Assembly: GCA_945897955.1 (NCBI GenBank) | Contig: CAMDGQ010000001.1 | Coordinates: 49,373-73,372, forward strand | Direction: 5' to 3' | Source: Tepidiphilus sp. J10 | GTDB lineage: Bacteria > Pseudomonadota > Gammaproteobacteria > Burkholderiales > Thiobacillaceae | Length of the DNA stretch: 24,000 nucleotides | Part shown: positions 2,296-21,340 of the stretch, piece after piece | Numbering within the stretch: the stretch's first letter is position 1 | Layout of the letters: the number at the start of each line of letters is the position of its first letter | Made by a program: the position numbers and the translations under genes | The notes under the pieces: model-generated | Told to the model about the DNA's origin: nothing | Database searches by the model: none | Seen by the model: only the letters and a program-made list of their open reading frames with translations

Positions 2296-2690
2296 TGAGC
2301 TTCTCCCCGTAACAGACCCAGAAGCTTGCGCTCGCTCTGGCCGCCCAGTTCCACCCGGCGAATCACCTCCGCCTCCACCAGCACAAAGCTGGGCGTGGCG
2401 GCGATGCTGAAGCCGTGTGCGATCTCGGGTGCTTCAGCGATGTTGATCTTGATCAGGTTGCGATGCGTTGCCCTCAGCCTGTCCACCAGCGGGGTCATGG
2501 CTTTGCAAGGGCCGCAATGAGGCGTGTAAAAATAGTACAACCGGCGCGGGTCGGCGTGCGCATTTCCGTCCACCGCCGAGGTGTCCGGTACCGCCCGACC
2601 TTCAGCCCTCACCGCACGTCGCTCGATGAGAAACTGAATCAGGAAAATCAGAGCAAACAGCACAACAAGAAATGTCAGCGGCCAGGTCAT
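2292..2690 (-). CDS. Membrane-anchored thioredoxin-family protein (CGPC active site)
   Basis: MTWPLTFLVVLFALIFLIQFLI is an N-terminal TM helix. YYFYTPHCGPCKAMTPLVD is a thioredoxin fold with a CGPC motif. Start is moved to ATG 2690 (GGAGAT 4 nt upstream). The track extension to 2870 overlaps the 116-aa gene and looks like a shadow frame. Confidence 0.8.
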   Translation of the reverse strand: MTWPLTFLVVLFALIFLIQFLIERRAVRAEGRAVPDTSAVDGNAHADPRRLYYFYTPHCGPCKAMTPLVDRLRATHRNLIKINIAEAPEIAHGFSIAATPSFVLVEAEVIRRVELGGQSERKLLGLLRGEAQ

Positions 2691-2739
2691 GGCAATCTCC
2701 AAAATGCGTTGCAACTCATTGAGTTCGGATGGCGTGAAT

Positions 2740-3090
2740 TCAATAGCCAAATTCGCCCAGCCACTCGCCCCGGTGGTAGTCGATGGACAGCCAGTGCGGA
2801 ACATAGGGGCGGGGATTGGCGATCGGAAAATCATCCATGGGGGGACTGCCAGGTAGATCGGAAATGGCACAGACCCGGGTCATCACCGGGCGAAAGCGGA
2901 CCGAGAGGCGGTCGGAGACCGATGTTGCTGTCTCCTTGCCCAGCTCCCTGAAGCGCACTCGCTTACGAATCAGGCAGGAAAACAACAGCTCCATTTCGGC
3001 CAACAGCGGCGACTCGCGTTCGGCAAGGGCTCGCGTCGCCCGCGAGCTGAGGCGGATTTCGACGGTTTTGTCGGCAAGTGTGATGTGCAT
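2740..3090 (-). CDS. Hypothetical protein (116 aa), first gene of the thioredoxin operon
   Basis: Complete ORF starting 47 nt downstream of ECF-type promoter copy 2. I recognise no family. Confidence 0.6.
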   Translation of the reverse strand: MHITLADKTVEIRLSSRATRALAERESPLLAEMELLFSCLIRKRVRFRELGKETATSVSDRLSVRFRPVMTRVCAISDLPGSPPMDDFPIANPRPYVPHWLSIDYHRGEWLGEFGY

Positions 3091-3136
3091 CGCGGTTTCC
3101 AGTTCAGACAGTCAGACATCAATTTCACGATGATTG

Positions 3137-3162
3137 GTCGTTCAGAAACTGGATTCCTGACA
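3137..3162 (-). promoter_or_regulatory. ECF-type promoter copy 2, reads leftward toward the 116aa-thioredoxin-145aa operon
   Basis: Minus strand 3162->3137 = TGTCAGGAAT ccagtttctgaa CGAC (then caat). Confidence 0.65.
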
Positions 3163-3262
3163 CTCAGGTATTGGTTTATCTGGTGAATTCAAAAACGTGT
3201 GGCACTTGCGGCCATCAATATCGGCCGGTCCATAATGCGAACCCCGCCCCCTTGGATGCGCC

Positions 3263-5116
3263 ATGCACCTGCCAGCAAGATTCAGCGGCATTTCCGCGCG
3301 ACTCTATTTCGCCTTTCTTGCGGCTGCCGCGATTCCAGTTGCCATCGCCGGGCTGGTGGGCATTCATTATTCGATTCAGGCCCTGCGCGACCAGACCCTG
3401 ACGCACCTGGACCAGGAGGTCGCCAGCCGGGCGGAAACAGTCGCCCGCTTCATGGAACAACTGGCCAGCGAAGTGTTGTACCTGAGCGCCTCGCCCGCGC
3501 TGGACGAGTGGGTGGAACAGCCGTCCGAAAGTGCCCGGCTGCGTCTGGAGCGCGATCTATCGGTCTTTGCAACGGCGTATCCGTATATCTATCAGGCGCG
3601 TTATCTCGATGTCTCGGGCCGCGAGCGGGTGCGCGTCGACCGTGTCGATCATGCGGTCAATGCTGTCCCCAGCCCGGCTTTGCAGGACAAATCCGACCGC
3701 TATTACTTTCGCGATGCAATGACACTGGCGGCGGGTCAGATTTATGTTTCCCCGCTTGATCTGAACATCGAACATGGCCGGGTGGAAACGCCGGAACGGC
3801 CGGTGATTCGGGTTGCCACGCCGGTCGCCGATGCCAGCGGGGTCAAACGTGGTCTGCTTATCATCAACCTGCACGCGGAACTGTTTCTACGTCAGGTCCA
3901 GCAAATGGCCGAAAGCCATGGCGGCACCGCGTACCTGTTCGATCGGGCCGGTTTTTTCCTGTCGCGATCCGGCCAATCCGCAGTCGAGTCATTCAGGATG
4001 CAGGCCGTCGACGCGCTCGACAGCGCCGTGCCCGGCGCGCTGCTGGCCGAGATTCTGTCAGGCAAACGCGGCGTGGTGGCGGAAGACAGCCAGGTTGTCG
4101 CCTACGCTCCGGTCAGCATGCAACCGATCGCCGGTCACCTGAATTCGCCGCCGCGCGCCTGGGCGCTGGCATTGGCTTACCCGCAAAGCCGCTTTTTCTC
4201 CGCCGTGTTCAATCTATACCTGCTGTATTCCGTCCTGGTCGCCGCGCTGGCGGCAACTGCCATCGCAGGCTGGCTGGTATCGCGCAGTCTGTTGCGGCGA
4301 CTGGTGGACGAACGGCGGGAACAGGATCGGCAATTGTTTCAGCGCGAAAAGATGAACACGTTGGGTGAACTCTCGATGGGCCTGGCGCATGAAATCGGCA
4401 ATCCACTGGCGGGCATGAAAGCGGTGGTGCAGGTGTTGCAGCAGGACGATGCGCCGGATGGATCGTCCAACGCGACGATGCACAAATACCTGCCGAAACT
4501 GGAGAATGAAATCGACCGGCTTTCCAGCTTCCTGCGCACCTTCAATGGTTTCGCCGCCCCCCAGGCGCACCAGCCGATACCTTGCCGATTGGAAGACGTG
4601 CTGGACGATGTGCTGCTCTGGACGCGTAAGGAAGCGCGCGAAAAGGGGATCGAGATTCAGTATCGCCGCTGTGGCAAGGACATCCCGCCGCTACTGGCGG
4701 ACCCGAATCAATTGAAGCAGTTGCTGCTGAATCTGGTCATCAATGCCATCCATGCGATAGACGGGCCCGGCCGTATCACGCTGTCGATGTGCAATTCGCC
4801 ACTCGGCCAGCCCGCCGCGATCTCACAACGGCGGCACATTCACTTTTGCGTCGAGGACGACGGGCCGGGTATCGCCGCTGAAGCCTTGCCGAAAATTTTC
4901 GAACCGTTCTTCACCACACGCCCGAATGGGACAGGTCTGGGATTGGCCGTGGTGAAGAAAATTGCCGATCAGCATGGCGCCACGATCCAGGTGCATACCG
5001 GTCCCAGCGGGCGCGGCAGCCGTTTCGAGCTGGCCTGGCCGGCGGCGGGTATGGACGCGCAGCAACCCGAAGCCGAAGCCTGTGCCGCGAGGCCGACCAT
5101 GAAGGACACCGCATGA
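3263..5116 (+). CDS. Sensor histidine kinase with a large periplasmic Cache-like domain (NtrB/AtoS-type transmitter)
   Basis: Two TM segments (LYFAFLAAAAIPVAIAGLVGI and LYLLYSVLVAALAATAIAGWLV) flank a region of about 270 aa. H-box ELSMGLAHEIGNPL; N-box LLLNLVINAIHA; G1 VEDDGPGI; F IFEPFFTT; G2 GTGLGLAV. The stop overlaps the response-regulator ATG (ATGA). Confidence 0.9.
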   Translation: MHLPARFSGISARLYFAFLAAAAIPVAIAGLVGIHYSIQALRDQTLTHLDQEVASRAETVARFMEQLASEVLYLSASPALDEWVEQPSESARLRLERDLSVFATAYPYIYQARYLDVSGRERVRVDRVDHAVNAVPSPALQDKSDRYYFRDAMTLAAGQIYVSPLDLNIEHGRVETPERPVIRVATPVADASGVKRGLLIINLHAELFLRQVQQMAESHGGTAYLFDRAGFFLSRSGQSAVESFRMQAVDALDSAVPGALLAEILSGKRGVVAEDSQVVAYAPVSMQPIAGHLNSPPRAWALALAYPQSRFFSAVFNLYLLYSVLVAALAATAIAGWLVSRSLLRRLVDERREQDRQLFQREKMNTLGELSMGLAHEIGNPLAGMKAVVQVLQQDDAPDGSSNATMHKYLPKLENEIDRLSSFLRTFNGFAAPQAHQPIPCRLEDVLDDVLLWTRKEAREKGIEIQYRRCGKDIPPLLADPNQLKQLLLNLVINAIHAIDGPGRITLSMCNSPLGQPAAISQRRHIHFCVEDDGPGIAAEALPKIFEPFFTTRPNGTGLGLAVVKKIADQHGATIQVHTGPSGRGSRFELAWPAAGMDAQQPEAEACAARPTMKDTA

Positions 5117-6486
5117 GCAACCGCATCCTGATCGTCGATGACGACGATACCCTGCGCGAAACCCTGGCCGACGTGCTGGCCCGCCACTACGAGGTGGATC
5201 AGGCGGCGGACGCGGCGAGCGCCTTGGCCATCGCCCGCAGTCGTTCATTCGATCTGGTGTTGCTGGATTTGCGCCTGCCCGACGGCAACGGCCTGGAAGT
5301 GTTGCAGCAACTGCACGAAATCGACGAGCGCCTGCTGGTAGTGGTGATGACCGCCTACCCGGAAATTCGCACCGCGGTGACCGCCCTCAAGGCGGGCGCT
5401 TACGATTATCTGAACAAGCCGTTCGATCTGGATGATTTGCGCGGCCTGGTGCGACGCGCGTTGGAAACCCAGCAACTGCGTACCGAGGTGGAGCGGCTGC
5501 GCGCCGCCGTGCCGCCGCTGGCCAATCTGGAAGGCATGATCGGCGCCAGTCCGGCCTTTCTGAGCATGGTGGAAGTCACCCGCCGGATTGCCGCCGCCGC
5601 CCGCACGCCGGTGTTGATCAGCGGCGAATCCGGCACCGGCAAGGAGCGCATCGCGCAGACCATCCACAATCTGTCGAGCCGCGCCGCCGGCCCCTGGGTG
5701 ACATTGAACTGTTCGGCCATCGCCGAAGGTTTGCTGGAATCGGAAATGTTCGGCCACGAAAAGGGCGCGTTCACGCATGCCGTCGCCAGCAAGCGAGGCC
5801 TGCTCGAACTGGCCGACGGCGGCACGTTGTTCCTGGACGAGATCGGCGACCTGTCACCGACGCTGCAACCCAAGCTGCTGCGCGTGATCGAGACCCAGTC
5901 GTTCCGCCGCGTAGGCGGTCAGCGCGAATTGCACGTCGACGTGCGTTTTGTCGCCGCCAGCAACCGTGACTTGAACGAACGCATTCGTCAGGGCCTTTTC
6001 CGTGAAGACTTGTATTACCGCCTGAATGTCGCCGGCATCGACGTGCCGCCCCTGCGCGAGCGGCGCGAGGATATTCCGCAACTGGCGCGGCATTTCCTGG
6101 CCCAGGCCGCCGCAGTGATGGGACTGCAAGTCGTTGATATCGCGCCGCTCGCCGAGACGCGGCTTGCCGCCTATGTCTGGCCTGGCAACGTGCGGGAATT
6201 GCGTAACGTGATGGAGCGCGCCCTGATTCTTTCCGGCGGCGCCAGGATCGAGGCGGAACACTTGCCGAAGGAACTCTGCACCAACGCCGCCTGCCGGTCG
6301 CAGGACGGATCGGCGCTGCCGTTCGCGCTGGCGGACATGGAAAAACTCCATATCGGACGCGTGCTGCGGCATTGCCGCGGCAACAAGACGCATGCCGCCG
6401 CATTGCTGGGCATCACACGGCTGACGTTGCGCAACAAGATTGCGCAGTACGAATTGCTGGAAGGGGCCGAGGAAGGCGAAGCGTAG
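5113..6486 (+). CDS. Sigma-54-dependent response regulator (NtrC family: REC + AAA+ + Fis-type HTH)
   Basis: REC domain (ILIVDDDD..DLVLLDLRLPDGNG..KP). Walker A GESGTGKE; GAFTHA loop; DGGTLFLDEIGDL; WPGNVRELRN; C-terminal HTH AAALLGITRLTLRNKI. Confidence 0.95.
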   Translation: MSNRILIVDDDDTLRETLADVLARHYEVDQAADAASALAIARSRSFDLVLLDLRLPDGNGLEVLQQLHEIDERLLVVVMTAYPEIRTAVTALKAGAYDYLNKPFDLDDLRGLVRRALETQQLRTEVERLRAAVPPLANLEGMIGASPAFLSMVEVTRRIAAAARTPVLISGESGTGKERIAQTIHNLSSRAAGPWVTLNCSAIAEGLLESEMFGHEKGAFTHAVASKRGLLELADGGTLFLDEIGDLSPTLQPKLLRVIETQSFRRVGGQRELHVDVRFVAASNRDLNERIRQGLFREDLYYRLNVAGIDVPPLRERREDIPQLARHFLAQAAAVMGLQVVDIAPLAETRLAAYVWPGNVRELRNVMERALILSGGARIEAEHLPKELCTNAACRSQDGSALPFALADMEKLHIGRVLRHCRGNKTHAAALLGITRLTLRNKIAQYELLEGAEEGEA

Positions 6487-10587: not shown

Positions 10588-10671
10588 GGCAATCTCCTTG
10601 TTACAACGTGGCGGGCGAGGCCCGAATGCTGCGGTTTATTGGACCGCATGTTCCATAACAGAGCAAAAAAA

Positions 10672-11265
10672 TCAGTCCAGCGCCTTCAGCACCATGCTGA
10701 TGATCCCCTGCAGCGTGGCCGCATCAGCGCCGGCCTTGGCTTGGGTTTTCAAGCCACTCATGCTGCTGACCAGGAAGTTGGCCAGCATTTGCGCATCGCG
10801 TTCTGGCGGGATGTCGCCTTCTCGCTGGGCGCGTTCAACCGCAGCCCGCAACACGTTGCGGAAGCGTTCGATGCTGTGCGCCACATCCTGTGCGATCTCG
10901 GGATCGCTCTGGGCGAATTCACTGGCGGTATTCATCACCAGACAGCCGCGCGGTTGCGCCTGGCCGCTGACATCGTTCAGCACCGAATTGAGGAAGCCCT
11001 CAATGAATTTGCGGCCGCTGGGCGCGCCGGACAATCCATCGCGCAGCATCTGGGTGAATTGATCGGCGTAACGCGCCACACATTGCCTGAACAATTGCTG
11101 CTTGCCGCCGAACGCCTGATACAGGCTGCTTTTGGACAGATTCATCGTCGCCAGCAAGTCCTGCATCGAAGTGGATTCATAGCCTTTCGACCAGAATTGA
11201 TGCATCGCGGCATCAAGCGCGAGGTCGGGGTCGAATTCGAGAGGTCGTCCAATGTTTGCAGCCAT
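10672..11265 (-). CDS. TetR/AcrR family transcriptional regulator
   Basis: GRPLEFDPDLALDAAMHQFWSKGYESTSMQDLLATMNLSKSSLYQAFGGK is a TetR N-terminal HTH. Start is chosen at ATG 11265 (MAANIGRP), the usual distance from the HTH. The track start at 11370 (ATGA with the cytochrome c stop) remains possible. Confidence 0.85.
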   Translation of the reverse strand: MAANIGRPLEFDPDLALDAAMHQFWSKGYESTSMQDLLATMNLSKSSLYQAFGGKQQLFRQCVARYADQFTQMLRDGLSGAPSGRKFIEGFLNSVLNDVSGQAQPRGCLVMNTASEFAQSDPEIAQDVAHSIERFRNVLRAAVERAQREGDIPPERDAQMLANFLVSSMSGLKTQAKAGADAATLQGIISMVLKALD

Positions 11266-11271
11266 AAGGTA

Positions 11272-11295
11272 TTTGTGGACCATACGGTTCACAAA
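11272..11295. promoter_or_regulatory. 24-bp near-perfect palindrome, candidate TetR operator
   Basis: TTTGTGGACCAT|ACGGTTCACAAA has 10 of 12 positions symmetric. It lies 7 nt upstream of the preferred TetR start. Confidence 0.4.
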
Positions 11296-11366: not shown

Positions 11367-11978
11367 TCAAGGCTGGCGCCTGAAGCTGCCGACGTAATAG
11401 GTCAGATCCGCCGCTTCCCGGGTCCCCGTGGCCAGCGGTTTGCCCTTGAGGAACATTGCCACGCAGTTGTTCTGCATCTCGGTCTGGGTGATGACCCGGC
11501 CGTTGAGCGGCTTGTAGCTCGGGTAACGTTGCGCCACGTCGAGCAACGATGGGATGGCGACCTCATGTTCGCCGATACCGACCTTGCCGCCTGCCGTGCC
11601 GCCATTGGGATGGCAAGCCGCGCAATTGAGGCCGCTGGTGCCCAGACGCGAATCGTTGAACAACGCTTGGCCGCGCGCCAGGGCGTTTTGCTCTCCCTGG
11701 CGCATGGCTGTCATGCGTTCGCTTTCGTTCAACTTCATGAAGCGATCCATGTTGGCCAGCATGTCCGGCGATGCCGCATCGCTGAAATTGTGAACACTAG
11801 CGCCACTGCCATAGTGGGTGGGATAGTTCAGCCAGGGGTTGTTGGTGGGGTTGGCAGGGCGTGGTGTCGGCGTTCCAGGGCCATTGACGATGAATCCGGC
11901 GCTGAACGCCGGTAGCCCGACCATAGCGAGCACGACACAAAGCAGGCGTTGCGAAAAAATTTTGGCATAGGTTGGCAT
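11367..11978 (-). CDS. Secreted monoheme c-type cytochrome
   Basis: Signal peptide MPTYAKIFSQRLLCVVLAMVGLPAFSA and a single CAACH site. Start is moved to ATG 11978 (GGAGAT 5 nt upstream), because the track start at 12113 lies upstream of promoter copy 3. Confidence 0.8.
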   Translation of the reverse strand: MPTYAKIFSQRLLCVVLAMVGLPAFSAGFIVNGPGTPTPRPANPTNNPWLNYPTHYGSGASVHNFSDAASPDMLANMDRFMKLNESERMTAMRQGEQNALARGQALFNDSRLGTSGLNCAACHPNGGTAGGKVGIGEHEVAIPSLLDVAQRYPSYKPLNGRVITQTEMQNNCVAMFLKGKPLATGTREAADLTYYVGSFRRQP

Positions 11979-12027
11979 GATTGATCTCCATCGGTTTCGC
12001 CCAGGAAAAATCAGGCGCTGATGTTGA

Positions 12028-12053
12028 GTCGTCGCTCGCTTGAATTCCTGACA
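12028..12053 (-). promoter_or_regulatory. ECF-type promoter copy 3, reads leftward toward the cytochrome c gene
   Basis: Minus strand 12053->12028 = TGTCAGGAAT tcaagcgagcga CGAC (then tcaa). CGAC ends 50 nt before ATG 11978. Confidence 0.65.
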
Positions 12054-12162
12054 AATCATTTCGGGAACAAAACGCCCTCGTTCAGGACCGATTGGTTCAT
12101 AATCGCAGCGCACCGCGTACCGAATTCACTTGAAGAATCTTCCGCGCGAGAGGAGAAGGCTT

Positions 12163-12759
12163 ATGAGCGACAGCATTCTGGGTTCACCGGAGACCTGGTT
12201 GGATGAGCATGGCGCCGCGCTCTACAAATATGCGCTGGTGCATACCCGCGACCAGCACAAGGCCGAGGAAGCGGTGCAGGAAACCTTGCTCGCCGCTTTG
12301 CAGGCACGCGACCGATTTTCCGGTGGCGCATCCGCACGCACCTGGCTGATCGGCATCCTCAAGCACAAGATCATCGATATGTTCCGGCACGACGCGCGCG
12401 AGGTACAACTGGACGACCCGGACGAACTAGCCGATGCGGATGAAATGCAGGATACCGACAACTTTGCGTCTGACGGACACTGGCAACACAAGTTGTCCGA
12501 TTGGGGCAATCCGCAAGAATTGCTGGAACGCGGCCAATTCATGATCATCCTGCAACGCTGCATGGATGCCTTGCCACCGCGACTGGCGCGACTTTTCCTG
12601 TTGCGCGAGGTGATGGAAGAAAATACTGAAAACATTTGTCAGGAATTGGCGATAACGCCGACCAACCTGTGGACGATGCTGTATCGGGCCCGTTTGGGGC
12701 TCCGGCAGTGTCTCGACAGAAATTGGGTTGGCAACGCAATGCAGGCTGCCCGGAGGTGA
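12163..12759 (+). CDS. ECF (sigma-70 group IV) RNA polymerase sigma factor
   Basis: Region 2 EEAVQETLLAALQARDRF..TWLIGILKHKIIDMFRH. Region 4 LPPRLARLFLLREVMEENTENICQELAITPTNLWTMLYRARLGLRQCL. Start is at ATG 12163 (GAGGAG 7 nt upstream); the track start at 12130 is a TTG. Confidence 0.9.
   Translation: MSDSILGSPETWLDEHGAALYKYALVHTRDQHKAEEAVQETLLAALQARDRFSGGASARTWLIGILKHKIIDMFRHDAREVQLDDPDELADADEMQDTDNFASDGHWQHKLSDWGNPQELLERGQFMIILQRCMDALPPRLARLFLLREVMEENTENICQELAITPTNLWTMLYRARLGLRQCLDRNWVGNAMQAARR
12637..12662 (+). promoter_or_regulatory. ECF-type promoter copy 4, internal to the sigma gene, reads rightward toward the anti-sigma and GGDEF/EAL genes
   Basis: TGTCAGGAAT tggcgataacgc CGAC (then caac), embedded in the codons for ICQELAITPTN. 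CGAC ends 104 nt before ATG 12766. Confidence 0.6.
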
Positions 12760-12765
12760 ATGAAG

Positions 12766-13041
12766 ATGCTGACATGCAAGGATGCAAGCCACTTGATCTC
12801 GGAGAGTCAGGAACGCCGATTGGGTTTCCGGGAACGCTGGGGTTTGCGGATGCATCTCTGGATGTGCGTCAGTTGCAGTCGCTTCGAGCGGCAGATGGCC
12901 TTCATGCGGCAAGCTCTGCGGATGCTGGGCAAGCGTGCCGAGGACGAGACTGACAGCAGCGGATTCCCCCCCGAGTCGCGTGAACGTATCCGCAAGGCGT
13001 TGGCTGAGCGGGACAAGCAAACCCACGATCATCCCCATTGA
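12766..13041 (+). CDS. Soluble zinc-finger (ZAS-type, HxxxCxxC) anti-sigma factor
   Basis: HLWMCVSC is an H-x3-C-x2-C motif, and there is an upstream Cys (MLTCKD). No TM segment is present. The gene directly follows the ECF sigma gene, with GGAGG 9 nt upstream of ATG 12766 (12760 is also possible). Confidence 0.8.
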   Translation: MLTCKDASHLISESQERRLGFRERWGLRMHLWMCVSCSRFERQMAFMRQALRMLGKRAEDETDSSGFPPESRERIRKALAERDKQTHDHPH

Positions 13042-13108
13042 GCCCTCGCCGGCTTCAATGCCGGCCAGGTCTACCGAAAATCCGTGTAGCTCAAGGAGCC
13101 CGTTTGTG

Positions 13109-15382
13109 ATGCCCAGGCGGAATCGTTATTACATCCTCGGCGTATATGCCTTGTTGCTGGCATTGAGCGCCGGATTCTCGATCAAGATATACCACGACAG
13201 CCGTGCGCTTTACGGCGAAACCGTGGCGTTGATCGAGCAGGATCTACCCATCCTTGGCAGCCTTTCCAACCTGCGTGCCAACGTCGTGGCGCAGGAGCCC
13301 ATTCTTTACGAGTACTACGCCACCACCGACCGCGCGCGTTTTCGCCAGCGCTGGCAAGGCAATCGGCAGCTTGTTGCCGAACTGGGCACCAAGATTCGCC
13401 GGGACTTCCCGGGGCATCCGCGTTTGCTCGTGGTCGATGACCTCAACCGAGAGGTCGATGCCCTTTCTCTGGAGCTGGATCGATTACTCGGCGCCAAGCC
13501 GGTCGATTGGGATGAGGCGCGCGCCCTGCTGGAGGAAATCAGCCTGCACGCGGTGGAGATCAACGCCAACCTGGACAGGCTGGCCGAGGATGTGCACGGT
13601 CGCGTCGACAGCAAGGCTAGCGCCGCACAAATGCGCGTCGACACGATCAACTGGACGGCGCTTTTCTATAGCGGCGCAATGTTTCTGCTGGCCATCGCCG
13701 CCGGCTACTTGATCAATAGTTATCTTGCCGGCGCGCGTGAGCGCCGGCGTCTGGCCATGTTCGCCGAGCGTAACCCGAACCCCGTCATGAATCTCGACGC
13801 CGCAGGTGGCGTGCTGTATGCCAACCCGGCCGCACATTCGACGCTGGCCACCTTGGGATACAACGCTGGCCCGCTTACTCTGTTGTTGCCATCGGACATG
13901 CCTGCGCGGCTGGAGAGCATGCTCACCGAGGGGCTGGCAACCCGCCAATGGAATTACACCGCACTGGGGCGGGAATACGAAACGACGCTCCAATATCTGC
14001 AGGATTTCGAGTACTTCAATGCCTATCTGGTCGATGTCAGCGGACGCAAGGAAGCTGAACGGCGCATGGAATATCTGGCCGAACACGATCCCTTGACCGA
14101 TCTGCCCAACCGCCGCCGTTTTATCGAGGATATCCGCCGGGAAATCGCCAATGGAAGGTTGGGGGCTGTCGTTTTGCTCAGCATCGACCGTCTGCGGGCC
14201 ATTGTCGATGGTGTCGGTCATGGCGTCGCGGATCAACTTTTGCAGGCTGTTGCCCAGCGTTTGCTGCGTTCGCTGGCGGATTGCACCGACCAATGCTCGA
14301 ACGCGCATCTTTACCGATTCGAGGGCGCGGTATTTGGTCTGTTGCTGCCCTGTCTGGAAACGGAACAGACACCGGAACAGATCACGCGAAAGATCGCGCG
14401 TGATTTCGAGTCACCCATCCATGCAGATAACCAGGCTTTCTTTCTCGGGGTGAGCATCGGTGCCAGTTTGTTCCCCACCGATGATGGCGACGCGGTCAAT
14501 CTGATCAGCCATGCCGACCGCGCATTGCAACAGGTCAAACAACGCGGTGGCGGCGGGTATCGTGCCTATGACCGGGACTTGTCGATCCAGGCCGCCGAGC
14601 GGCTTGCGCTGGAAGGCGATCTCCGCCACGCGCTTGAACGTAAGGAACTGTTCATTCAGTACCAACCGCAGGTGGAGGTGGCGAGCATGCGCATCGTCGG
14701 CGTGGAGGCTTTGCTGCGCTGGCGGCATCCAACCCGGGGACTGATCTCGCCGGCCCAATTCATCCCGCTCGCCGAAGCGTCCGGCCTCATCGTGCCGATC
14801 GGTGCCTGGGTGCTGGAAACGGCGTGTGCCCAAGCGCAAGCCTGGCATACGACAGGTCTGCCCCGCATCACCATGGCAATCAATCTTTCCGCCCGCCAGT
14901 TCGCCACCGAAGATTTGGCAAGGGACATTGCGCAAGTCCTGAGCCAAACTGGGCTGCCGCCGCAATTCCTGGAACTTGAAGTCACCGAAAGCATGGCGAT
15001 GGATGATGTGGAACGCTCAATCAGGATATTGCGTGCAATGAAAGACCTCGGCGCTTGTATCTCGATCGACGATTTCGGTACCGGTTATTCCTCACTGGCT
15101 TACCTGCGCCGTCTGCCCATCGACAAGCTCAAGGTGGACCAGTCCTTTGTGAGGAATCTGGAAAACGATCCCGGTGATGCGGCCCTGGTTCTCAGCGTGG
15201 TGCAACTGGGGCATAGCCTGAACCTGAGCGTCATCGCCGAAGGCGTCGAGACGCTGGGGCAACTGGAATTCCTGCGCGGTACGGGGTGCGAAGAAATCCA
15301 GGGCTATTACTTCAGCCGCCCACTCGACAGTGCTGCACTGGAAACCCTGCTTGGCAGCGGCATCGCGGCATTTCAAGCGTGA
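13109..15382 (+). CDS. Membrane sensor protein: periplasmic helical domain - PAS - degenerate GGDEF - EAL (probable c-di-GMP phosphodiesterase)
   Basis: TM helices YYILGVYALLLALSAGFSI and LFYSGAMFLLAIAAGYLI. In the GGDEF domain the signature reads RFEGAVFGLLL (GGDEF replaced by EGAVF). The EAL domain appears intact (VEALLRW, DDFGTGYSSL, KVDQSF, AEGVET, QGYYFSRP). Start is ATG 13109 or GTG 13106, after AAGGAG. The track extension to 12935 overlaps the anti-sigma gene. Confidence 0.9.
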   Translation: MPRRNRYYILGVYALLLALSAGFSIKIYHDSRALYGETVALIEQDLPILGSLSNLRANVVAQEPILYEYYATTDRARFRQRWQGNRQLVAELGTKIRRDFPGHPRLLVVDDLNREVDALSLELDRLLGAKPVDWDEARALLEEISLHAVEINANLDRLAEDVHGRVDSKASAAQMRVDTINWTALFYSGAMFLLAIAAGYLINSYLAGARERRRLAMFAERNPNPVMNLDAAGGVLYANPAAHSTLATLGYNAGPLTLLLPSDMPARLESMLTEGLATRQWNYTALGREYETTLQYLQDFEYFNAYLVDVSGRKEAERRMEYLAEHDPLTDLPNRRRFIEDIRREIANGRLGAVVLLSIDRLRAIVDGVGHGVADQLLQAVAQRLLRSLADCTDQCSNAHLYRFEGAVFGLLLPCLETEQTPEQITRKIARDFESPIHADNQAFFLGVSIGASLFPTDDGDAVNLISHADRALQQVKQRGGGGYRAYDRDLSIQAAERLALEGDLRHALERKELFIQYQPQVEVASMRIVGVEALLRWRHPTRGLISPAQFIPLAEASGLIVPIGAWVLETACAQAQAWHTTGLPRITMAINLSARQFATEDLARDIAQVLSQTGLPPQFLELEVTESMAMDDVERSIRILRAMKDLGACISIDDFGTGYSSLAYLRRLPIDKLKVDQSFVRNLENDPGDAALVLSVVQLGHSLNLSVIAEGVETLGQLEFLRGTGCEEIQGYYFSRPLDSAALETLLGSGIAAFQA

Positions 15383-18683: not shown

Positions 18684-18709
18684 TGTCAGGAATTGACGTG
18701 TGCGCCGAC
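18684..18709 (+). promoter_or_regulatory. ECF-type promoter copy 6, reads rightward toward the RiPP precursor operon
   Basis: TGTCAGGAAT tgacgtgtgcgc CGAC (then caaa). CGAC ends 100 nt before ATG 18809. Confidence 0.65.
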
Positions 18710-18808: not shown

Positions 18809-19225
18809 ATGAACGCACGTAAAACCCACCTGACCATCGCCCTTGCCGCAACCATTGGCGCCGCTGCCGGCCTCGCCGGCTATGCCCAGGCTGCGAGCAG
18901 CAACCCCTTCGCCATGCAAAGCCTGAACAGCGGCTACATGGTCGCCGCCGCCGAAGCCAAGGCCAAAGAGGGAAAATGCGGTGAAGGTAAATGTGGCGGC
19001 AGCAAGGCCAAGGCCAAGGAAGGCAAGTGTGGCGAAGGCAAATGCGGCGGCGATAAGGCCAAAGCCAAGGAAGGCAAGTGTGGCGAGGGCAAATGCGGTG
19101 GCGATAAGGCCAAATCCGATGCCAAGGCCAAGGAAGGCAAGTGTGGTGAAGGAAAATGTGGTGGCAGCAAGGCCAAAGCCAAGGAAGGCAAATGTGGCGA
19201 GGGCAAGTGCGGCGGCAAGAAGTAA
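18809..19225 (+). CDS. hvfA: RiPP precursor, HvfA-like: Sec signal peptide + five KEGKCGEGKCGG repeats (10 EGKCG motifs)
   Basis: MNARKTHLTIALAATIGAAAGLAGYAQA/ASS is a signal peptide. It is followed by 5 x AKAKEGKCGEGKCGG(S/D/K)K. RBS GGAG lies 7 nt upstream. The gene directly precedes a DUF692 gene. Confidence 0.85.
   Translation: MNARKTHLTIALAATIGAAAGLAGYAQAASSNPFAMQSLNSGYMVAAAEAKAKEGKCGEGKCGGSKAKAKEGKCGEGKCGGDKAKAKEGKCGEGKCGGDKAKSDAKAKEGKCGEGKCGGSKAKAKEGKCGEGKCGGKK
18956..19222 (+). repeat. Five in-frame tandem repeats (51, 51, 51, 63, 51 nt) encoding the EGKCG-EGKCG units
   Basis: Units start at 18956, 19007, 19058, 19109 and 19172. The 36-nt cores differ only at synonymous third positions. 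Confidence 0.9.
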
Positions 19226-19243
19226 GCCTGCGGCAGACCGACC

Positions 19244-20086
19244 ATGCGTACATCCACACTGCATGGCGCGGGTCTCGGCCTGAGGCGGGAACTCATCCCC
19301 GACCTTAGGACCGACCTCCCGAGCGCCATAGACTTCTTCGAACTCGCCCCGGAAAACTGGCTGGAAATGGGCGGCTCGCGACGCCGCGATCTGCGCCACT
19401 TCGCCGAGCGCCGGTCCATCGTTGCGCACGGCCTGTCGCTCAACCTGGGCGGCCCGACGCCGCTGGACGAACTGTTTTTGCAACGCGTGAAGCGTTTTCT
19501 GGACGAATACCGTATCGATCTGTTTACCGAACACCTGTCCTGGTGCGGCGACGACGGCCACCTCTACGACCTGCTGCCGATTCCGTTTACCGGCGATGCG
19601 GTGCGTCATGTCGCGGCGCGCATCCGGCGCACGCAGGACATTCTCGAACGCCGCATCGCCATTGAAAACGCCTCCTACTATGTCTCGCCGGCGATTGCCG
19701 AGATGAGCGAGATCGACTTCATCCGCGCCGTGCTGAGCGAGGCCGATTGCGATCTGCACCTCGACGTCAACAACGTCTATGTCAACAGCGTCAACCACCG
19801 CTTCGACCCGCGCGCCTTCATCGACGCGATGCCGGCCGAGCGCATCGTTTATCTGCATATGGCCGGGCATTACCAGGAAGCCGAAGATCTGATTATCGAC
19901 ACCCACGGTGCGCCGGTGATCGATCCGGTGTGGCAACTGCTCGACCACACCTACGCCCGCATCGGCACACGGCCGACGCTGTTGGAACGTGATTTCAATA
20001 TTCCGCCGTTGGTGGAATTGCTGCCGGAAGTGACGCGCATCCGTGAACTTCAACAACAATACCCCGGATTGCGCCATGCCGCCTGA
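19244..20086 (+). CDS. hvfB: DUF692 / MNIO (multinuclear non-heme iron oxidase) RiPP-modifying enzyme, MbnB/HvfB-like
   Basis: GAGLGLRRELIPDL..IDFFELAPENW..VAHGLSLNLGG..FTEHLSW..IAIENASYY..LHLDVNNVYVNSVNHRFDP..VYLHMAGH..IIDTHGAPV..PTLLERDFNIPP is the full DUF692/UPF0276 signature. Confidence 0.9.
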   Translation: MRTSTLHGAGLGLRRELIPDLRTDLPSAIDFFELAPENWLEMGGSRRRDLRHFAERRSIVAHGLSLNLGGPTPLDELFLQRVKRFLDEYRIDLFTEHLSWCGDDGHLYDLLPIPFTGDAVRHVAARIRRTQDILERRIAIENASYYVSPAIAEMSEIDFIRAVLSEADCDLHLDVNNVYVNSVNHRFDPRAFIDAMPAERIVYLHMAGHYQEAEDLIIDTHGAPVIDPVWQLLDHTYARIGTRPTLLERDFNIPPLVELLPEVTRIRELQQQYPGLRHAA

Positions 20087-20870
20087 AGCCCTGCATTTCA
20101 CCGCGATGCTTTTCACAGACTATCAGGCTGCTTTCGGTGCCCGCATCCGCGACCCGAAACAGGCTGCGCGGCCGCCTGGCGTGCCGGCCAAACGTATGCG
20201 GGTGTATGAAGAACTGCTGTTCAACAATCTGGAAGGCTTTCTGCTGAGCTGCTATCCGGTCACCCGCAAACTGCTCGGCAAGCGTCTGTGGCGGCAGACC
20301 GTGCGGCGTTTCTTCGTCGAGCACCGTAGCCACTCGCCGCTGTTTCGAGATATCCCGAAAGCCTTTCTCGACTGGATGGCCAGCGGTGCGGCGCAATTCG
20401 CAACCCTGCCATTTCTGCCCGAATTCATGCATTACGAATGGCTGGAGCTGAGTGTCTCGATCACGCCGGAAGAAGTCGATCCGGCTGCCATCGATGCTCA
20501 CGGCGATCTGCTGCGTGGCCGTCCTGCGCTGCACCCGACCGCCCGCCTGGCCTGTTACGCCTATCCGGTGCATCAAATCAGCCCACGTTTCAAGCCAACA
20601 GCGGCGGATGGCCAAACCTGGTGTTATCTGTTGTTCCGCGATGAAGATGAAGCCGGACAGGATGATGTGCGCTTCATTTTGCTGAACCCGCTCTCCGCCC
20701 AATTGATTGCCCTGATGTGCGATCACCAACCGAGCGGACAAGAAGCGCTGGCGCATCTGGCAGGACAGAACAATCCAACTCAATACGAAGCTTTCCTTCA
20801 ACTCGGTGGCGAACTGCTGCGCGACCTGCGCAAACAAGGCGCCCTTCTTGGAACCTGGAGAAATCAATGA
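20076..20870 (+). CDS. hvfC: DUF2063-family partner protein (HvfC/BufC/MbnC-like)
   Basis: The N-terminal region (FTDYQAAFGARIRDP..RMRVYEELLFNNLEGFLLSCYPVTRKLLG..W..FFVEHRSHSPLFRDIP..F) is typical of DUF2063. ATG 20076 overlaps the end of hvfB by 11 nt; the track start at 20043 is a GTG. Confidence 0.8.
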   Translation: MPPEALHFTAMLFTDYQAAFGARIRDPKQAARPPGVPAKRMRVYEELLFNNLEGFLLSCYPVTRKLLGKRLWRQTVRRFFVEHRSHSPLFRDIPKAFLDWMASGAAQFATLPFLPEFMHYEWLELSVSITPEEVDPAAIDAHGDLLRGRPALHPTARLACYAYPVHQISPRFKPTAADGQTWCYLLFRDEDEAGQDDVRFILLNPLSAQLIALMCDHQPSGQEALAHLAGQNNPTQYEAFLQLGGELLRDLRKQGALLGTWRNQ

Positions 20871-21340
20871 ACCTGATCGCAAATCTCACCGGTCTGACCC
20901 AAACCACCTTCGGCGGCCTGAGCAAAATCGGCGAATGGATCGCACCACTAGGCCTGCGGCTGCTGCTGGCTTATGAATTCTGGCAAGCCGGGGTGGAGAA
21001 ATTCAACGGCGAGAACTGGTTCGCCGACATTCAGGAGCAATTCCCCTTTCCGTTCAATGTCGTACCTGTGGAAATCAGCTGGCAAATATCGACCTGGACC
21101 GAATTGATCGGACCAGTCATGCTGGTGCTCGGCCTCGGCACCCGTTTCGCCAGCGTGTCGCTAATCATCCTGACCATCGTCGCTTGGGTCAGCGTACATG
21201 CCGGCAACGGCTACAACGTGTCTGACAACGGCTTCAAGTTGCCGTTGATCTACTTGGTTATGTTTGTGCCACTTCTGCTCTCAGGCCCAGGCAAGTTGAG
21301 TCTGGATCACTGGATAGCCAATAGGCTGTCGCATAGATAA
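20867..21340 (+). CDS. DoxX-family integral membrane protein
   Basis: LGLRLLLAYEFWQAGVEKF.., followed by several hydrophobic helices. ATG 20867 is ATGA-coupled to the hvfC stop, with GGAGAA upstream. The track extension to 20717 is a shadow frame inside hvfC. Confidence 0.85.
   Translation: MNLIANLTGLTQTTFGGLSKIGEWIAPLGLRLLLAYEFWQAGVEKFNGENWFADIQEQFPFPFNVVPVEISWQISTWTELIGPVMLVLGLGTRFASVSLIILTIVAWVSVHAGNGYNVSDNGFKLPLIYLVMFVPLLLSGPGKLSLDHWIANRLSHR

Follow-up and report, generated by a model that had tools for sequence, protein, structure and literature searches.

Background

Sigma factors of the extracytoplasmic function (ECF) type are usually assumed to be autoregulatory, and pipelines for the prediction of their regulons depend on this assumption. 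The question raised by a 24-kb stretch of the Tepidiphilus sp. J10 genome (contig CAMDGQ010000001.1, positions 49,373 to 73,372; hereafter 'the window') is whether such a sigma factor may instead feed back through its inhibitor. The window harbours an ECF sigma factor gene, followed on the same strand by the gene for a zinc-binding anti-sigma factor, as well as repeated copies of a two-block promoter motif, one of which is situated within the sigma gene and oriented towards the anti-sigma gene. Comparative sequence analysis points to an explanation that is considered likely, namely that this internal site is a promoter dependent on the sigma factor encoded by the same DNA, and that the sigma gene is not subject to direct positive autoregulation.

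Results

A promoter motif within the sigma factor gene

The sigma factor belongs to the TIGR02943 family, which it matches at 201.7 bits (cut-off 162.2) as the sole protein in the genome to exceed the cut-off, while its partner matches NF052368 ('antisigmaE') at 75.5 bits (cut-off 50) and contains the sequence HLWMCVSC. The two genes are closely apposed, the anti-sigma ATG (12766) being found 6 nucleotides (nt) past the sigma stop codon with a Shine-Dalgarno sequence, GGAGG, inside the last sigma codons. It is from this start that the NF052368 profile aligns at residue 1, and an earlier ATG meets a stop codon in two orthologues.

The motif can be written TGTCAGGAAT-N12-CGAC or, alternatively, TGTCAGGAAT(T/C)-N11-CGAC(C/T), and is present in six copies in the window: four on the minus strand (1809-1784, 3162-3137, 12053-12028 and 18589-18564) and two on the plus strand (12637-12662 and 18684-18709). 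Four of these copies match the 11-mer exactly and the other two differ from it by a single mismatch, and all six combine CGAC at identical spacing with an A/T-rich stretch upstream. An initial annotation had described the copy at 12637-12662 as lying within the region 4 codons of the sigma gene and facing the anti-sigma gene, and this is borne out. The site reads TGTCAGGAATT, an 11-nt spacer and CGAC, in the frame of the sigma open reading frame (ORF), spanning codons 158-167, from Ile158 to Thr167 (ICQELAITPT), within the Pfam Sigma70_r4_2 match (residues 129-177); its CGAC is 104 nt from the anti-sigma ATG, on the sense strand.

The remaining five copies are found 5' of genes in the matching orientation, with inferred leaders of approximately 35-100 nt wherever the first gene is evident. 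The genes behind them comprise the hvfABCX metallophore operon, an OlsF-like lipid synthase gene, a cytochrome c gene and a thioredoxin-like gene. The copy at 18684 (+) precedes hvfA, hvfB, hvfC and hvfX (18809-21340), which thus places hvf-type metallophore genes in the regulon. The copy at 1809-1784 (-) has its predicted start a few nt before the ATG of an 85-residue ORF (1771-1514, minus strand) without a family match, located ahead of a glycogen debranching enzyme gene; to judge by this spacing, the ORF may be a leaderless small gene.

The 3.9 Mb assembly, with a G+C content of 60.7%, contains 15 TGTCAGGAAT sites in total, nine of which form the whole motif with CGAC correctly spaced. A matrix was built from the eight of these outside the sigma gene, with the internal site kept out of training; the latter then scored 38.9 bits, the top non-training match in 3.9 Mb, with the runner-up at 23.1. 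Regulon promoters outside the window in the same genome (G000) were seen at C1:5619-5680, C11:38480-38540, C1:9561, C1:22025 and C1:45143. Two of these sites are back-to-back divergent pairs with -35 boxes about 10 nt apart, and three are of a weaker form, TGTMAGGA...CGACnAATCA; at C11:38515, the -10 box of the plus-strand partner is out of register.

The sigma and anti-sigma families are those of Neisseria meningitidis sigmaE/MseR and Haemophilus influenzae RpoE2/HrsE, with which the locus also shares the link to DUF692/hvf-type genes. The Neisseria consensus joins GTMAGBWTT as -35 box to CGTCTAAH as -10 box across 12-13 nt and includes an UP element, with transcription starting 6 nt downstream of the 8-nt -10 motif (PMC2893595). 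Both GTCAGGAAT as the -35 box and the 12-nt spacer fit this description, and the promoters of all three systems appear to be of one type, with GTMAGG..., a spacer of 12-13 nt, CG[AT]C..AA and an UP element, a putative one in the case of the window. The -10 box is CGACyAA in the genus, as opposed to CGTCTAA in the consensus, a form that is found in the relatives G033, G035 and G063. By its -35 box and spacer, the window motif (GTCAGGAAT, 12 nt, CGACyAA) is of the Neisseria sigmaE/MseR promoter type, in agreement with the earlier supposition that it is the cognate promoter. By analogy with the Neisseria start position, transcription from the internal site would begin at the position listed in Table 1, leaving a leader of around 93 nt before the ATG at 12766.

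The A/T-rich stretch upstream of the internal -35 box, in which each of three Glu codons is GAA in 17 of 18 genus orthologues, would presumably act as an UP element. The 5' end of the predicted transcript could form a stem-loop (12672-12714), the first 45 nt having a folding energy of -23.7 kcal/mol (z = -3.5 relative to mononucleotide shuffles); one pair changes between CG and GC across the genus, in that the substitution of Gly for Ala176 is accompanied by a matching third base in codon Gly179. The evidence for this structure is weak because it is situated within coding DNA. An Rfam scan of 11900-13200 returned only a chance-level match to Xoo8, far under the gathering score.

Synonymous sites within the genus

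The sigma gene was present in 18 of the 47 genomes sampled from the genus, at 68-95% amino-acid identity, and the internal site is kept at the same codons in 18/18. Synonymous codon identity, computed among pairs of these 18 orthologues sharing the residue (a version with eight sequences was also run), is 0.93 over the -35 box (codons 158-162), falls to 0.70 over the spacer (codons 163-165) and returns to 0.92 over the -10 box (codons 166-168), relative to 0.646 for the whole gene and 0.606 for codons 1-151. Variation among orthologues falls on the degenerate y in CGACy and on the spacer, whose Ile164 codon may be ATA, ATT or ATC. Because orthologues show no synonymous drift in either the -35 or the -10 box, the dual constraint that had been proposed for this DNA, both as protein code and as promoter, is real, and selection acts upon it at the nucleotide level.

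Residue 160 is Lys in seven orthologues, the DNA then reading TGTAAGG (TGCAAGG in one case), a substitution that falls on the degenerate position M in the published consensus; C and A are likewise both seen at this position among the regulon promoters of the genus. The idea that Gln160 and Lys160 (C or A) constitute a specificity switch strictly co-varying with the regulon promoters was dropped following a genus-wide scan, in which both variants were found in both kinds of genome; the Neisseria consensus also has M there.

Such conservation might reflect a feature of the mRNA or its translation, such as a pause at rare codons of the helix-turn-helix or a structure required to couple translation to the anti-sigma gene, with the promoter resemblance being secondary. 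Rare codons are indeed clustered here, the candidate stem-loop lies downstream, and synonymous conservation is still raised (0.71-0.79) to approximately codon 190. However, this would leave unexplained the exact two-block match, with correct spacing, to eight other sites in the genome; furthermore, the spacer codons drift, and the sole variation tolerated in the -35 box (C or A, giving Gln or Lys) is that of the published M. An origin in translation is accordingly regarded as extremely unlikely.

A second alternative is that the match to a promoter is a by-product of the conserved protein segment ICQELAITPTN and that the site is silent. The segment is part of the conserved region 4.2 helix-turn-helix, and the combinations Cys-Lys/Gln-Glu-Leu and Thr-x-Thr-Asn are widespread in the family. 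Yet it is at synonymous sites that conservation is found, in a pattern that is high in the -35 box, low in the spacer and high in the -10 box, and codons rare in the genome (ATT, 0.22; TGT, 0.22; TTG, 0.14) are retained in the -35 box. More distant relatives also bear on this alternative.

Conservation across the family

A family scan using one genome per species identified 80 named loci in Betaproteobacteria, Gammaproteobacteria and a few other phyla which, with ten order-level loci, gave 79 distinct sequences of the region. GTMAGG is present at the Cys-Lys/Gln codons in 51 of them. Without exception among these 51, codon 166 is NCG (CCG in 24, GCG in 15, ACG in 6 and TCG in 6) and codon 167 begins with A or T; residue 166 can thus be Pro, Ala, Thr or Ser, with the CG of the -10 box fixed. 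The baseline for a third-base G in such codons elsewhere in these genes is 0.373. Residue 166 has undergone at least 16 changes on a quick maximum-likelihood tree, and NCG is found in 20/20 clusters of 60% identity or less (p ~3e-9), between which fourfold sites are nearly saturated, since third bases at shared fourfold codons agree at 0.395 compared with a random expectation of 0.316.

The -35 box shows a corresponding dependence on the neighbouring residue: Cys is encoded by TGT in 55/61 sequences where Lys or Gln follows, as against 5/18 otherwise. A Fisher test of whether the -35 and -10 boxes occur together gives p 5e-11, an overstatement in that relatives are not independent. If the promoter match were only a by-product of the protein, it would be hard to account for the retention of CG at codon 166 across four amino acids (51/51 sequences, 20/20 deep clusters), for the predominance of TGC as the Cys codon where residue 160 is neither Lys nor Gln, or for the finding that, among the 28 sequences that have no -35 box, CG[AT] is missing from the -10 position as well in 18. 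A silent site is hence judged highly improbable.

In G033, G063 and G066-G070, the internal site is the sole strict motif match. When the -10 variants (CGTC, CGAA or CGAC) of internal and regulon sites were compared in distant genomes, informative non-internal sites came from G035 only, and these read CGTCTAA, like its own internal site. A subgroup of Burkholderiales (L062, L063, L068, L082, L083, L089 and L112) has Thr-Ala-Asn-Asn in this segment, so that the internal -10 box reads CGAATAA or CGAACAA; whole-genome scans for L068, L082, L083, L089 and L112 gave the internal site as the only strict match and revealed no regulon promoters.

Upstream of the sigma gene

The motif copy in the region upstream of the sigma gene (12028-12053) had been read as pointing away from it, towards the cytochrome c gene, and it is on the minus strand. 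It is exact in 5 of the 18 orthologues, the window included, with a near-match in a sixth, these being the genomes that have the cytochrome c neighbour. The accompanying statement that no copy is oriented towards the sigma start also holds: the best plus-strand candidate in 11940-12200 of this genome, TTTCGGGAAC-N10-CGTTCAG at 12059, scores 0.6 bits on the two blocks, where the internal site reaches 31.7, and plus-strand copies ahead of the sigma gene are absent from 18/18 genus orthologues.

The sigma gene could still be positively autoregulated if its cognate site had diverged or were differently spaced, as may be imagined for the candidate at 12059, whose GGAAC and CGTT resemble generic ECF boxes. 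Neisseria sigmaE is autoregulated, the sigma gene being found at the end of a regulated hvf-type operon (PMC2893595), and in reporter fusions the H. influenzae rpoE2 upstream region showed baseline to slight RpoE2-dependent activity, that of an 865-bp fragment being slight (PMC7907618). The candidate, however, has a spacing 2 nt too short in addition to its low score, and already in the closest orthologue (L036) its CGTT has been lost; moreover, the upstream motif is missing throughout the 18 orthologues, and autoregulation in Neisseria arises from a gene order which, where it recurs in the family (L014, L088 and L115), is unaccompanied by the internal site. Positive autoregulation from a diverged or differently spaced site thus appears very improbable. 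The earlier proposal that this sigma factor lacks the usual positive autoregulation is, as far as can be predicted, consistent both with the missing upstream copy and with the baseline to slight RpoE2 dependence of the H. influenzae region (PMC7907618).

Read-through into the sigma gene from the upstream cytochrome c gene (11367-11981) is excluded, as the latter is divergent. A hexamer resembling CATAAT is found upstream of the sigma gene in 17/18 orthologues (CATAAT in 13, GATAAT in three and CATTAC in one), located 35-184 nt, and mostly 35-77 nt, before the sigma start and usually followed by CGC. A housekeeping-type promoter is tentatively proposed to drive the sigma gene, with the conserved CATAAT at 12098-12103 as its predicted -10 box.

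In this genome the hexamer forms the right arm of a TetR-operator-like palindrome (Table 1). Related palindromes are found at 11277-11290, in the promoter of a TetR-family gene, and at 10641-10654, between the same TetR gene and genes for AhpD/CMD-like and DsrE-like proteins; the three share the form GGACC-N4-GGTTC or GTTCC, with T-rich and ATAA flanks. In two orthologues (L004 and L037) the TetR gene directly adjoins the sigma gene in divergent orientation, and in five others, this genome included, the cytochrome c gene alone lies between them. Such an arrangement suggests that a TetR-family repressor may gate sigma transcription, with the palindrome at 12085-12103 as candidate operator.

Gene order downstream of the anti-sigma gene

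The internal site had also been considered to face a GGDEF/EAL gene. Such a gene does lie downstream on the plus strand in this genome and is possibly co-transcribed with the anti-sigma gene; it is found 3' of the anti-sigma gene in only two of the 18 orthologous loci, those of this genome and of L036, and is not a conserved part of the unit because it is otherwise present there only in this closest relative. A hairpin between the two genes (Table 1) was not listed by a terminator scan.

In many relatives (L049, L051, L052, L055, L067, L070, L075 and L077), the genes for sigma, anti-sigma, hvfA, hvfB and hvfC follow one another in this order on one strand; in L070 the arrangement is seen at 2480-5376. 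Several such loci, for instance L052, L055 and L070, have no full (12 of 12) motif match other than the internal site, which on this basis may drive the entire anti-sigma-hvf operon in genomes of this type. In the window, the hvf operon is situated 6 kb away from the sigma gene and has its own motif copy. The internal site is absent where the order is of the Neisseria type, with hvfB upstream of the sigma gene (L014, L088 and L115).

Table 1. Features of the sigma/anti-sigma locus, with positions in the window
Feature	Position	Strand	Remarks
TetR-family gene	10672-11265	-	TetR_N + TetR_C_13; palindrome 11277 just upstream
Motif copy in sigma upstream region	12028-12053	-	faces cytochrome c gene (11367-11981, minus strand)
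TetR-operator-like palindrome, GGACC-N4-GGTTCATAAT	12085-12103	+	N4 = gatt; right arm is the -10-like CATAAT, 12098-12103
ECF sigma factor gene, 198 amino acids	12163-12759	+	Pfam Sigma70_r2 + Sigma70_r4_2; TIGR02943
A/T-rich stretch upstream of -35 box	12615-12636	+	codons MEENTENI; comparable stretch at all other copies
-35 box, TGTCAGGAATT	12637-12647	+	core GTMAGGAAT; codons Ile158-Cys-Gln-Glu-Leu162; exact match to other copies
Spacer	12648-12658	+	12 nt between GGAAT and CGAC
-10 box, CGACCAAC	12659-12666	+	codons Pro166-Thr-Asn168
Predicted transcription start	12672-12673	+	by analogy with Neisseria
Anti-sigma factor gene, 91 amino acids, MseR/HrsE type	12766-13041	+	zinc-binding (H-x3-C-x2-C); Pfam zf-HC2; NF052368
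Hairpin GCCGGC-ttcaat-GCCGGC	13048-13065	+	perfect 6 bp, without U tract; between anti-sigma stop and GGDEF/EAL start
GGDEF/EAL protein gene	13109-15382	+	Pfam GGDEF + EAL

Discussion

The 26-bp element at 12637-12662 is probably a genuine, functional promoter, judging by its match to the regulon motif and its conservation. According to the mechanism proposed here, it would serve the sigma factor encoded by the same DNA, from within the codons for the region 4.2 helix-turn-helix. Free sigma factor and RNA polymerase would start transcription near 12672, the last 29 sigma codons serving as leader, and the internal transcript would then run through the gene for the zinc-binding anti-sigma factor and perhaps also, in this genome, through that for the GGDEF/EAL protein. 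A housekeeping-type transcript from upstream would cover both sigma and anti-sigma genes, providing basal, roughly 1:1 synthesis, whereas extra synthesis dependent on the sigma factor would be of the inhibitor only, that is, direct negative feedback without direct positive autoregulation. Such a circuit would favour fast shut-off after loss of the signal, an oxidant or a metal, by which the anti-sigma factor is inactivated.

Two known systems share this architecture, which is therefore not unusual in kind. In Corynebacterium glutamicum, the SigH-dependent promoter PrshA inside sigH produces a separate rshA transcript that starts 62 nt upstream of rshA, while sigH is itself read from housekeeping (SigA) promoters, and a role in rapid shut-off has been proposed (Busche et al. 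2012, PMC3489674). As in the window, the partner of the ECF sigma factor is a cytoplasmic anti-sigma factor that binds zinc, and a promoter of that sigma factor is located within the sigma gene; a further likeness is the lack of a cognate promoter upstream of the sigma gene, in the window as judged by sequence. By contrast, C. glutamicum belongs to a different phylum and its sigma factor to the SigH/SigR ECF group, recognising GGAA-N16-19-GTT; its internal promoter has been mapped, where that of the window is predicted, and neither family-wide conservation nor constraint at the codon level has been reported for it. In Escherichia coli, the sigmaE-dependent promoter rseA P3, in the rpoE coding region 228 nt before rseA, drives the anti-sigma operon (Rhodius et al. 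2006, described in PMC8595263). E. coli differs from the window in that rpoE also has a sigmaE-dependent promoter upstream, so that a positive loop operates beside the negative one, in its leader of 228 nt, and in RseA being a membrane anti-sigma factor under proteolytic control.

Within the TIGR02943 family itself, no description of an internal promoter was found in the literature consulted, which included PMC2893595 and PMC7907618. The Neisseria system differs in having CGTC rather than CGAC in its -10 box and in the position of its autoregulated sigma gene at the end of a regulated operon. The only group assignment found was 'ECF group 13' (PMC7907618), and the main text of the ECF re-classification paper mentions neither DUF692 nor Neisseria. 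To the known architecture, the present analysis adds the depth of its conservation and a clear imprint of the promoter on the codons of the helix-turn-helix.

The precedents also bear on the possibility that the site binds the sigma holoenzyme chiefly as a roadblock or sink, impeding elongation or titrating the sigma factor, and yields no anti-sigma mRNA. A polymerase bound at, or slow to escape from, an intragenic site on the sense strand could indeed impede read-through, and sequence data cannot tell binding from productive initiation. Nevertheless, the full architecture of A/T-rich stretch, -35 box, 12-nt spacer and -10 box is kept, and is indistinguishable from that of the intergenic copies which precede genes; in relatives, the site heads the anti-sigma-hvfABC string where no other strong site is available; and the internal promoters of E. 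coli and C. glutamicum have mapped transcripts. A site that merely binds the holoenzyme is hence thought unlikely.

Several observations weigh against an internal promoter combined with a sigma gene that is not autoregulated. The protein segment is conserved, so that the conservation of the nucleotides stems in part from the amino-acid sequence. When co-occurrence of the -35 and -10 boxes is restricted to phylogenetically independent pairs, only six pairs remain and the test (p = 0.5) has no power. In distant genomes, the internal site is often the sole strict match in the genome, and agreement between it and the regulon promoters of the same genome is seen only for the genus and G035. Finally, a simple sigma-70 consensus scan of 11900-13200 detected no canonical -35/-10 pair upstream of the sigma gene, for which reason the assignment of its promoter is tentative.

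A broader proposal is that the internal promoter is ancient in much of the TIGR02943 family and has moulded the DNA-binding domain of the sigma factor itself, with the topology of regulation following gene order; this is advanced tentatively, being a little easier to doubt than to accept. If true, the promoter boxes would set the residues allowed at positions 160 (Lys or Gln), 166 (Pro, Ala, Ser or Thr) and 167 (Thr, Ser or Asn), and the gene segment for the module that reads the -35 box would itself be a -35/-10 target. Loci arranged as sigma[promoter]-anti-sigma-(hvf) would then have negative feedback only, and those with the Neisseria-type order hvf-sigma-anti-sigma would have both loops.

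The locus offers an unusually clean natural case of a promoter constraining a coding sequence, with codon 166 kept as NCG across four amino acids. The family in question controls the genes for copper-binding peptides (hvf) and, in the relatives that have been studied, oxidant-defence genes such as msrAB. A widespread proteobacterial sigma family appears to feed back through its inhibitor only, which would explain why the target motif has been missed upstream of the sigma gene.

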